From: a virus
Lineage: Duplodnaviria; Heunggongvirae; Uroviricota; Caudoviricetes
Direction: 5' to 3' (one strand)
Length of the DNA: 48,953 bases
Virus record (IMG/VR): IMGVR_UViG_2579778802_000015
In this document: in pieces, positions 27,235 to 28,560 of the stretch
Position numbering within the stretch: the stretch's first letter is position 1
Layout: every line of letters begins with the position of its first letter
The notes under the pieces: model-generated
Told to the model about the DNA's origin: nothing
The model's database searches: none
The model's input: the letters and a program-made list of their open reading frames with translations, nothing else
Program-made: the position numbers and the translations under genes

Positions 27235-27436
27235 TATTCCTCCCGGCAGGGATAGTGTATGCAATCAAGATAAGGTGCGGGCTGACGTCAGTCATGGACA
27301 AGGGTTCAGAAACAGGAGGATGACTACAGCCCGCAATACGAAAAAGACCATACAGTTGCGCAGAGTGATTACTGTCGGGTATTATTCGCCAGCTGAAAAT
27401 TGATCACTTCACGTTTTGTTGTTTATTCCTTGCCAC

Positions 27437-27470
27437 CCGCGCTTCCCGGCGCGGGCTTTTTTTTATCCAA
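27437..27470 (+). terminator. Plus-strand intrinsic terminator
   Basis: CCCGCGC-ttcccg-GCGCGGG followed by CTTTTTTTTAT. Confidence 0.6.
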
Positions 27471-27475
27471 CAAGA

Positions 27476-27502
27476 AAGCCCCTCCGGAGAGGGGCTGGAG
27501 AG
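27476..27502 (-). terminator. Minus-strand terminator-like hairpin (repeat copy 1)
   Basis: GCCCCTCTCCGGAGGGGC followed by TTTCTTGTT on the minus strand. Confidence 0.5.
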
Positions 27503-27957
27503 TAGCGCTATGTACCGTTCATGCATGGTGCCGGGTGCCTCCCGGTGAGTTCAGTATCAGCACCTGAACCCGCACCAGAAAGGATAAGGGGTGTGACCAA
27601 ACACCTGTCGCTGATATGCCCCTCCGCACAGGGGATTCACCATGCCATATTTTTTTAACAAACTTCCCGCTGGCCAGACAATAATCGCCAGCCTGAATTG
27701 TGAGTAACGTGGCATTTTACGGGAAAACTGTTTTCTGCAGTAAAAAGGCCCGCCGGAGCGAGCCTGGAAGGATAGCGGTCATGTGATGCCGGTTTCCCGG
27801 TAACTCAGCATCGGTATCTGAGTCAACGTTTTCTCTACTGGGTCATTTCCGATACGTTCCGCCTTCCGGCAGACTTTCATCACGTCAGAAAATATAGCAC
27901 CCTGAGTAACAGGACAGTACTCAGAATTCAGGAAACTGTGACACATCCTGCACAGAA

Positions 27958-27985
27958 AAGCCCCTCCGGAGAGGGGCTGAAGTAT
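27958..27985 (-). terminator. Minus-strand terminator-like hairpin (repeat copy 2)
   Basis: Same GCCCCTCCGGAGAGGGGC hairpin, followed on the minus strand by TTTTCTGTG. Confidence 0.5.
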
Positions 27986-28200
27986 AGCCTAATTTCTGTC
28001 TGTCGCATGGTGCCAGGTGCCTCCCGGTAAATTCAGCCTGGCTACTGAATTTGCATGTTCGCTGGATCATACACTTTGCCAGATGCCCCGCCGCTTAGGG
28101 GGATTCACCATGCAGTTTTTTCTAACAAATTCTCATCCGGGCAGACAACATTCAACTGACTTAATTGTGAGGTATGTAACATTCCTGTTGAACGGATACA

Positions 28201-28232
28201 AAAAAAGCCAGCCACCAGGGGAGGCTGGCAAA
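28201..28232 (-). terminator. Minus-strand intrinsic terminator about 330 bp downstream of the 197-aa gene
   Basis: GCCAGCC...GGCTGGC hairpin followed by TTTTTTTGTATCC on the minus strand. Confidence 0.6.
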
Positions 28233-28560
28233 CTCGTAGAGCAAAATGCTGTTACGCAAACTTCGTTACAGGGTTATCCTGCAATACTTAAAATATACAA
28301 TATTTAGAAAACTAATAGTGCCATATGATATTTTTAAGATTTTGTTATTAATTGCGGTCGCACCTTCCTTTCTGTGTACTTTCCGTATAGCTCACAGGAT
28401 TCTGGGTACAAAAAAACCCGCGCATCGGCGAGTTCGGCTGCGTGGCAATGTAACCACTCTTATCATGATATGCAGATTTTTACGTACGTAAAATACTTTT
28501 TTGGCATCCCACTTTATTCAGGTATGGAATCAAACAAGAGGACCGGGGTTCTACGACGCT

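Follow-up and report, generated by a model that had tools for sequence, protein, structure and literature searches.

The element examined here is a 1.3-kb block at positions 27235-28560 of a 48,953-nucleotide stretch of viral DNA (IMG/VR record IMGVR_UViG_2579778802_000015), and this whole stretch is called the window. The window contains a lambdoid prophage whose late genes are transcribed from the minus strand, and the order along this late strand is the gene for the Q antiterminator, a gene for a 197-amino-acid protein (197-aa gene), the block, nanS-p, the DUF1378/DUF826 genes, and the holin and lysozyme genes. This block is non-coding, with many terminators and with units that occur more than once. 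It is 99.8% identical to a prophage stretch of Escherichia coli UPEC-245U/190328, a strain from a recurrent urinary infection, in which RefSeq annotates no feature between the esterase gene (nanS-p) and the 197-aa gene. A Pfam search with the longest open reading frames (ORFs) within the block also gave no match, so the claim of a preliminary description, made from the sequence alone, that the block is non-coding was upheld. The same description had proposed that small RNA (sRNA)-like 3' ends or tR'-like elements fill the position that holds tRNAs and stx in Shiga toxin (Stx) phages. The known elements that the block contains are given below.

When positions 28181-28560 alone were used for searching, many Stx prophages gave a match to 28505-28198 at a place directly downstream of Q, with an identity of about 90-97% among the matches listed, and 686 of 5426 complete E. 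coli genomes have sequence of this type. We aligned the region with phage 933W, one O157 Stx2a prophage and one O157 Stx1a prophage. The results showed that positions 28492-28200 are 95-97% identical to the pR'/qut/tR' region of 933W/Sakai (Stx2a, Stx1a prophages), and that near-identity begins at the -35 box of the annotated pR'. The corresponding features of the window are as follows.

28465..28492, minus strand: late promoter pR', with -35 TTTACG (28492-28487), a 16-nt spacer and -10 TATCAT (28470-28465)
28444..28451, minus strand: qut-like element ACATTGCC, identical to the 'putative Q-utilization' feature of 933W (NC_000924 20707-20714)
28407..28435, minus strand: promoter-proximal hairpin followed by T7, found by terminator scan and homologous to 933W 20726-20748
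28201..28458, minus strand: homologue of the long form of StxS, ~258 nt from pR' to tR', 95-97% identical to Stx prophages
28274-28201, minus strand: equivalent of the processed form StxS-S, 74 nt, placed by alignment to 933W
28200..28229, minus strand: intrinsic terminator tR', a GCCAGCC/GGCUGGC stem followed by T7, homologous to 933W 20929-20957

The hexamers and spacing of pR' are the same as those of the pR' annotated in 933W (NC_000924 20666-20693), and this promoter was also picked up independently by a promoter scan. In Stx phages, the pR' transcript stops 258 nt on at tR' (Sy et al. 2020, PMC7547250), and RNase E cuts it to StxS, a 74-nt sRNA that binds Hfq, activates rpoS and represses stx1B (PMC7547250); StxS is reported to pair with the rpoS site also used by RprA, DsrA and ArcZ. 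The start site expected in the window, based on the promoter spacing and the StxS length, lies at ~28458, and the distance from there to the T-run (28201) is 258 nt, matching the reported length. The 74-nt part, including the rpoS-pairing region, differs from 933W solely in the terminator loop and the T-run. Because of this spacing and this near-identity to 933W, we conclude from alignment that the block holds the late promoter itself and a putative StxS gene. The hairpin at 28407-28435 is labelled a 'possible terminator' in the 933W annotation, and Term-seq in Sakai placed the main 3' end downstream of it (PMC7547250). An Rfam scan of the window gave no match for StxS; Rfam has no StxS family, and the assignment is therefore based on alignment. 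The RprA covariance model gave a weak match at 28197-28313 (minus strand; 28 bits, far below threshold), and membership in the RprA, Qrr or VqmR families at 28197-28334 was rejected, as the matches were far below threshold.

The repeated units matched another family of prophage RNAs. Rfam cmscan detected two full-length STnc100 matches (RF02076, gathering threshold 47 bits) on the minus strand, one at 28141..27950 (copy C; 145.1 bits, E 3e-32) and one at 27674..27466 (copy A; 129.8 bits, E 2.5e-28). In a repeat search, both units had in common a 32-nt block, CATGGTGCC(G/A)GGTGCCTCCCGG, at 91% identity, and the hairpin GCCCCTCCGGAGAGGGG was 100% identical in the two. The positions and shared motifs of the two units noticed beforehand were therefore confirmed, but not their number, since a third, diverged unit (copy B) is present at 27914..27739. 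These units are as follows.

27950..28141, minus strand: STnc100 copy C, with putative -35 TTGTCT (28148-28143), putative -10 TAGAAA (28124-28119), putative RNA 28114..27952 and terminator 27978-27959
27739..27914, minus strand: diverged STnc100-like copy B, with extended -10 TGCTATATT (27899-27891), putative RNA ~27885..27741 and terminator 27765-27746
27466..27674, minus strand: STnc100 copy A, with putative -35 TTGTCT (27681-27676), putative -10 TAAAAA (27657-27652), putative RNA 27645..27470 and terminator 27496-27477

All three copies fold alike, with a long-range closing helix (GCAUGGUG/CACCAUGC, or GUGAUG/CAUCAC in copy B), internal hairpins, a single-stranded linker and a terminator; the fold z-score is -3.4 for copy C and -2.5 for copy B. 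Single-sequence folding energy was judged not decisive, and covariation was used instead, in 34 diverse units that came from prophage contigs in IMG/VR or from reference loci. In this alignment 98.1% of cells were paired, and 19 of 30 pairs had changes on both sides, compared with 5.8 ± 1.5 in column shuffles and 3-8 in slid-partner controls. Since covariation is far above the shuffled and slid controls, the units are structured RNAs under selection and not decayed coding sequence. In the opposite view, a gene was duplicated and its coding sequence decayed into the repeats, so that the hairpins would be incidental; the preliminary description had itself named decayed coding sequence of a known gene as evidence that would speak against it. 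The block is indeed overlapped by short ORFs, the longest about 100 aa, and automatic annotation calls 'hypothetical proteins' there in phage PhiR5_2 and some genomes. However, the longest ORFs lack a Pfam match, RefSeq leaves the 99.8%-identical region unannotated, the substitutions are compensatory in RNA helices, the covariance-model matches are strong, and homologues have been detected experimentally as non-coding RNAs; we regard a decayed gene as extremely unlikely.

STnc100 is also known as EcOnc27 (Sakai Sp5), sRNA103 (EDL933) and EcOnc05 (Sakai Sp4), and it is Hfq-bound and detected on northern blots. EcOnc27, EcOnc05 and PasD are discrete Hfq-associated RNAs in other strains, enterohaemorrhagic (EHEC) and enteropathogenic (EPEC) E. 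coli, and the peak of Hfq binding to Sakai EcOnc05 corresponds to 27614-27487, inside copy A. The boxes of copies C and A (TTGTCT, an 18-nt spacer, TAGAAA/TAAAAA) line up with those of PasD2 (TTGACT-18-TAAAAA), whose mapped 5' end is the G of GCAUGG. The promoter and 5' end of copy C were placed by alignment to PasD2, and a start at GCAUGG would fit the predicted -35 and -10 boxes of both copies. Thus, the proposal of sRNA-like 3' ends was right about the kind of element, small-RNA genes of an Hfq-associated prophage family, but the units appear to be whole genes of ~145-180 nt and not 3' ends alone. Likewise, a true tR' is present, in the unrepeated part (28492-28200), while the repeats are independent STnc100 genes and not tR'-like elements. 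In the literature, many RIL-seq partners have been found for PasD, and sRNA103 overexpression affects fimZ and espA, with no settled mechanism; STnc100-region variants are among the features predicting clinical outcome in O157.

PasD1 and PasD2 of EPEC E2348/69 have been reported to be structurally homologous to STnc100 (Pearl Mizrahi 2021; Zhu, Shabalina and Storz 2026 preprint), and they share with the window units the 5' scaffold, the promoter layout and the neighbourhood (Q, sialate esterase). In contrast, the PasD linker/seed (CCUUGUGAG) and terminator differ from those of the window copies, visible in alignments as a different 3' third, and PasD2 scores 41 bits on RF02076, compared with 130-145 for copies C and A. 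Because PasD2 reaches only 41 bits on the model, the window copies are, by sequence, STnc100 proper and not PasD. A blastn search for a PasA homologue in the window was negative. The window units have in common with the STnc100 of 933W/Sp4 the late-operon orientation, the place just upstream of nanS-p and the multi-hairpin fold with the closing helix given above; they differ from it in that the window has three tandem genes and those phages a single copy, and the core and pre-terminator linker vary between the window copies.

We then examined copy B, which scored 90 bits with nhmmer, and its arrangement with the other two. Across the window, related loci and 120 IMG/VR contigs, nhmmer found units in 126 sequences: one unit in 100, two in 10, three in 15 and four in 1. 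All 15 three-unit arrays are ordered C-B-A, in several sequence variants, with B always in the middle. Their alignment showed that promoter-like boxes and terminators are kept, that C and A vary in their cores and linkers and that B is the most conserved; its extended -10 box TGCTATATT, its ~90-nt centre and its C/U-rich linker AUGACCGCUAUCCUUCC are invariant across the arrays. Copy B was found in 673 of 5426 complete E. coli genomes (~12%), in two main alleles whose stem differences keep pairing, one of them being a UA-to-CG double change, and none of the 39 full-length matches listed had an annotated feature at that position. A 15-base pattern search of genome contigs returned chance matches only, from unrelated phyla. 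One IMG/VR contig has the C-B-A array split inside B by an insert of ~1.7 kb (L156 2973-3086, 4830-5012), and another has four tandem STnc100-like units with different spacing (L129 2269-3372). Array size and integrity therefore vary.

The units are mosaics of interchangeable cores, linkers and terminators. Most of the difference among the three copies of the window is found in the core insert and the C/U-rich pre-terminator linker, where the PasD seed lies, and from these differences it is plausible that A, B and C would have different target sets. A further-reaching proposal is that B represents an unrecognised third STnc100-like subfamily and that C-B-A is a three-gene battery with one scaffold and three different target-pairing regions, which, together with StxS and the antisense RNA described below, would give five Hfq-type regulators in 1.3 kb of a non-toxigenic prophage of the ExPEC (extraintestinal pathogenic E. 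coli) type. We put this forward tentatively, at slightly under even odds.

At the end of the block next to nanS-p, a putative RNA gene on the opposite strand was identified, together with two elements of the nanS-p leader.

27292..27464, plus strand: convergent antisense RNA, homologue of Sakai EcOnc08/EcOnc21, with terminator 27436-27455 and T8 27457-27464
27335..27365, minus strand: decayed nanS-p-proximal terminator, GGCTGCGCAACTGCGCGGCCTTTTT in 933W and CTCTGCGCAACTGTATGGTCTTTTT in the window
27276-27290 / 27321-27335, no strand assigned: inverted repeat with 15-nt arms, shared by the nanS-p leader and the antisense RNA, 87% complementary (repeat search)

Sakai Sp4 carries a pair consisting of EcOnc05 on the late strand and EcOnc08/EcOnc21 on the opposite strand, the latter ~271 nt by northern blot (Tree et al. 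Table S2). An alignment of Sp4 with the window showed 85% identity overall and near-identity over 27330-27465. The Hfq-CRAC peaks of EcOnc08 and EcOnc21 map to 27386-27461 and 27292-27380 on the plus strand, respectively, and the published northern probe EcOnc08/21/42 has a close match at ~27349-27383. If the RNA were ~271 nt long as in Sakai, it would start near 27190, inside nanS-p, and would be antisense to the nanS-p ribosome-binding site and first codons. A ~60-nt anti-sRNA-like transcript from a weak GAAAAT box at ~27397 was set aside; the probe and the Hfq peaks lie upstream of the box and therefore indicate a longer RNA. The preliminary description had seen the plus-strand terminator and the back-to-back arrangement. 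The latter is correct, as the plus-strand RNA ends back-to-back with copy A, and the former exists but is not free-standing, being the 3' end of this EcOnc08/EcOnc21-type RNA.

AsxR and AgvB (Tree et al. 2014) hold the same position, convergent with STnc100 and ending back-to-back with it, but the RNA of the window has another terminator and body and is homologous to the longer EcOnc08/EcOnc21 RNA. The AsxR and AgvB models (RF02703, RF02702) gave no covariance-model match at E <= 5 in 24000-30000 and none in the whole-window gathering-threshold scan; 933W, the positive control, gave 88 bits (conserved ~42-nt 3' region). An AsxR, AgvB or Esr41 identity of the plus-strand element was thus rejected. 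IpeX was not matched in the block either, where the gathering-threshold and sensitive Rfam scans matched only the STnc100 family. Hence, among the prophage sRNAs suggested for comparison, StxS matches, and AsxR, AgvB and IpeX do not. Among the 126 unit-bearing sequences, 39 carry the convergent RNA of the window type and 18 that of the AsxR type, and none carries both.

The nanS-p-proximal terminator is intact in 933W and Sp4, and its version in the window forms no stable hairpin. The PasD terminator is homologous to the late-strand terminator between AsxR and nanS-p of 933W/Sp4 (L004 ~4830-4860; L001 ~2800-2832), and from this homology PasD may have arisen from STnc100 by losing the STnc100 3' part and the convergent sRNA. 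The arms of the inverted repeat, GCGGGCTG and CAGCCCGC, are kept in 933W and Sp4, and the repeat falls within the EcOnc21-equivalent Hfq peak of the antisense RNA.

Comparison with toxin phages placed these elements in a common order. In 933W, the order is pR'-tR'-tRNAs-stx2AB-STnc100-AsxR-nanS-p, and stxB2 immediately precedes its one STnc100 copy (207.7 bits), after which come AsxR, encoded on the other strand, and nanS-p. In a review, stxAB is described as 'bookended' by StxS and the AsxR/EcOnc27 dyad. The STnc100 units of the window lie on the late strand between the cargo position and nanS-p, in the same order as in 933W and Sakai Sp4. ARAGORN and Rfam detected no tRNA or cloverleaf in the whole window. 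As judged from these sequences, the flanking RNAs bracket the tRNAs and stx in toxin phages, and here, where those are absent, the RNAs are adjacent. The block thus occupies the place of the tRNAs and stx, as had been supposed, but the units are not substitutes for stx, since toxin phages have them too, downstream of their stx genes.

Similarity of the window to 933W ends ~10 bases past the tR' T-run, and the left end of the STnc100 cassette starts ~10 bases further. The same left end follows stxB2, stxB1, tRNA-Arg, a DUF3927 gene or, in the window, tR', and the exact tR'-cassette junction of the window was found in 1-2 of 5426 complete E. coli genomes. These five upstream contexts, the rarity of the juxtaposition and the mosaic cores, linkers and terminators would suit a cassette that is mainly a recombination module, with conserved ends marking a boundary for swapping cargo (stx, tRNAs, other genes) among lambdoid phages and with tandem copies as scars. 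Such a module accounts for the mosaicism. It does not explain why secondary structure is conserved, why there are promoters and terminators or why homologues bind Hfq, and the C-B-A order and B sequence are kept across arrays, unlike random scars. We consider it very unlikely as the main explanation.

The genes around the block bear on whether its promoter would be served by Q.

29289-29669, minus strand: Q antiterminator, 126 aa (Pfam Phage_antitermQ, 178 bits)
28561-29154, minus strand: 197-aa gene, with a weak DnaD_N-like match (33 bits) and a cysteine-rich C-terminus
25261-27234, minus strand: sialate O-acetylesterase, nanS-p type

StxS/EcOnc15 of Stx1/Stx2 phages and its homologue in the window share the pR' hexamers, the qut element, the 258-nt spacing to tR' and 95-97% identity. 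They differ in context, since the window prophage has no stx or tRNA downstream, the 197-aa gene is inserted between Q and pR', and Q is shorter. The homologue therefore neither directly follows Q nor has stx downstream; the name StxS reflects context, and the RNA itself is homologous by alignment. The Q of the window is 83% identical to Q933W and lacks its last ~19 residues, which in 933W overlap pR'. The order Q, 197-aa gene, pR' is also found, followed by stx1, in O157:H7 PV15-279. A pR' directly after Q (29288-29155) was rejected, as there is no similarity to the 933W pR' there and the homologue sits past the 197-aa gene. The 197-aa gene and its downstream region were found as one unit in 18 complete genomes.

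Taken together, we estimate a probability of about 85% that the block is the late-operon leader of a 933W-like lambdoid prophage without tRNA and stx genes and a dense cluster of known prophage sRNA genes. By homology with characterised systems, it would work as follows. In the lysogen, a constitutive pR' transcript would stop at tR' to give StxS, which would be cut to a 74-nt Hfq-dependent sRNA (an activator of rpoS in EHEC). C, B and A would each be made from their own sigma-70-type promoter and stopped at their own terminator, and an EcOnc08/21-type Hfq-binding RNA would be made from the opposite strand, antisense to the leader of nanS-p and with its 3' end back-to-back to that of copy A. 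The five late-strand terminators would keep transcription out of nanS-p and the lysis genes. Upon induction, Q would load at pR'/qut and make the polymerase terminator-resistant, so that transcription would run through the whole block and reach nanS-p and the lysis genes. For A, B and C, a trans-acting role is presumed by analogy. Phage lambda works by the same logic: its late promoter is constitutive, transcription ends early in the lysogen, and Q brings about read-through after induction. The lambda system, with its pR'-tR' 6S RNA, has another Q family member and another sequence; in the window, the terminated transcript is the homologue of a known trans-acting sRNA and further sRNA genes follow it.

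The terminator scan of 27000-29900 gave 15 terminator-like sites, compared with 2.9 ± 1.4 in shuffles, and those of the block are as follows.

28435-28414, 28231-28212, 27978-27959, 27765-27746 and 27496-27477, minus strand: terminators (terminator scan)
27436-27455, then T8 at 27457-27464, plus strand: terminator (terminator scan)

The minus-strand terminators reported in the preliminary description are thus present, but those at 28435 and 28229 belong to the pR'-StxS-tR' module, which it had not recognised. Five intact late-strand terminators between pR' and nanS-p also fit a purely cis-acting role, in which the units, as stacked terminators and structured RNA, shield nanS-p and the lysis genes from upstream transcription in the lysogen or tune the stability of the late-mRNA leader, with no promoters of their own, no trans role and short RNAs elsewhere as by-products. 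The Sakai northern sizes, longer than predicted from internal promoters, agree with this, as do the most conserved part of the family, a structured core with no obvious single-stranded seed, and the lack of a validated direct STnc100 target in the literature. On the other hand, a single terminator would suffice for insulation, homologues are abundant discrete Hfq-bound RNAs in EHEC/EPEC, with many RIL-seq partners for PasD, and -35/-10-like boxes are kept upstream of each unit although the cores differ, the extended -10 of B being invariant. We consider an exclusively cis-acting role improbable; a cis effect as such is compatible with the sRNA-gene cluster that we favour and does not exclude it.

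Several observations weigh against the sRNA-gene cluster. Expression in this strain is predicted from sequence, and, folded on its own, copy A is no more stable than shuffled sequences (z -1.07). The A and C RNAs predicted from a PasD-type start are 165-180 nt, shorter than the northern sizes of EcOnc27 (about 235/247 nt) and EcOnc05 (about 222 nt), so the 5' ends of A and C are uncertain. Copy B scores 30 bits on RF02076 (E 1e-3, sensitive Rfam scan), under the 47-bit threshold, and with two main alleles its covariation evidence is thin, the preservation of base pairs being suggestive. Published work has not settled the function of STnc100 or its targets, and the promoter scan found no consensus promoter for the plus-strand RNA. 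Finally, action of Q on this pR' is predicted, not assured, since Q is displaced by the 197-aa gene and ~19 residues shorter.

Elsewhere in the window, Rfam placed isrK (75 bits, 32051-32128, minus strand) adjoining C4 antisense RNA (74 bits, 31941-32025, minus strand), both above threshold. This pair points to a P1/P7-type c4-antirepressor immunity module in this prophage, and it is also present in phage PhiR5_2. In the UPEC-245U prophage, a RelE/ParE-family toxin gene with a helix-turn-helix partner is annotated just past isrK/C4 (L002 11062-11590, about 32300-32830 of the window by offset alone).

These results indicate that the block is real and largely ordinary, consisting of described elements in a rare arrangement. 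Only parts of it seem not to have been clearly described before: the middle unit B, the recurring triple array, and StxS carried by a prophage that lacks the toxin and has Q set apart from pR'. Most of the block goes unseen in genome annotation: RefSeq gives no feature, StxS has no Rfam match and B falls under the STnc100 threshold. Prophage sRNAs rewire host regulation, StxS by activating RpoS, and AsxR and AgvB by sponging core sRNAs. Here the stx-flanking sRNA set is kept in a toxin-free prophage and STnc100 is expanded to three genes. Because the set is kept and expanded without stx, in a prophage 99.8% identical to that of a urinary-infection strain, our findings argue that these RNAs serve the lysogen independently of the toxin.

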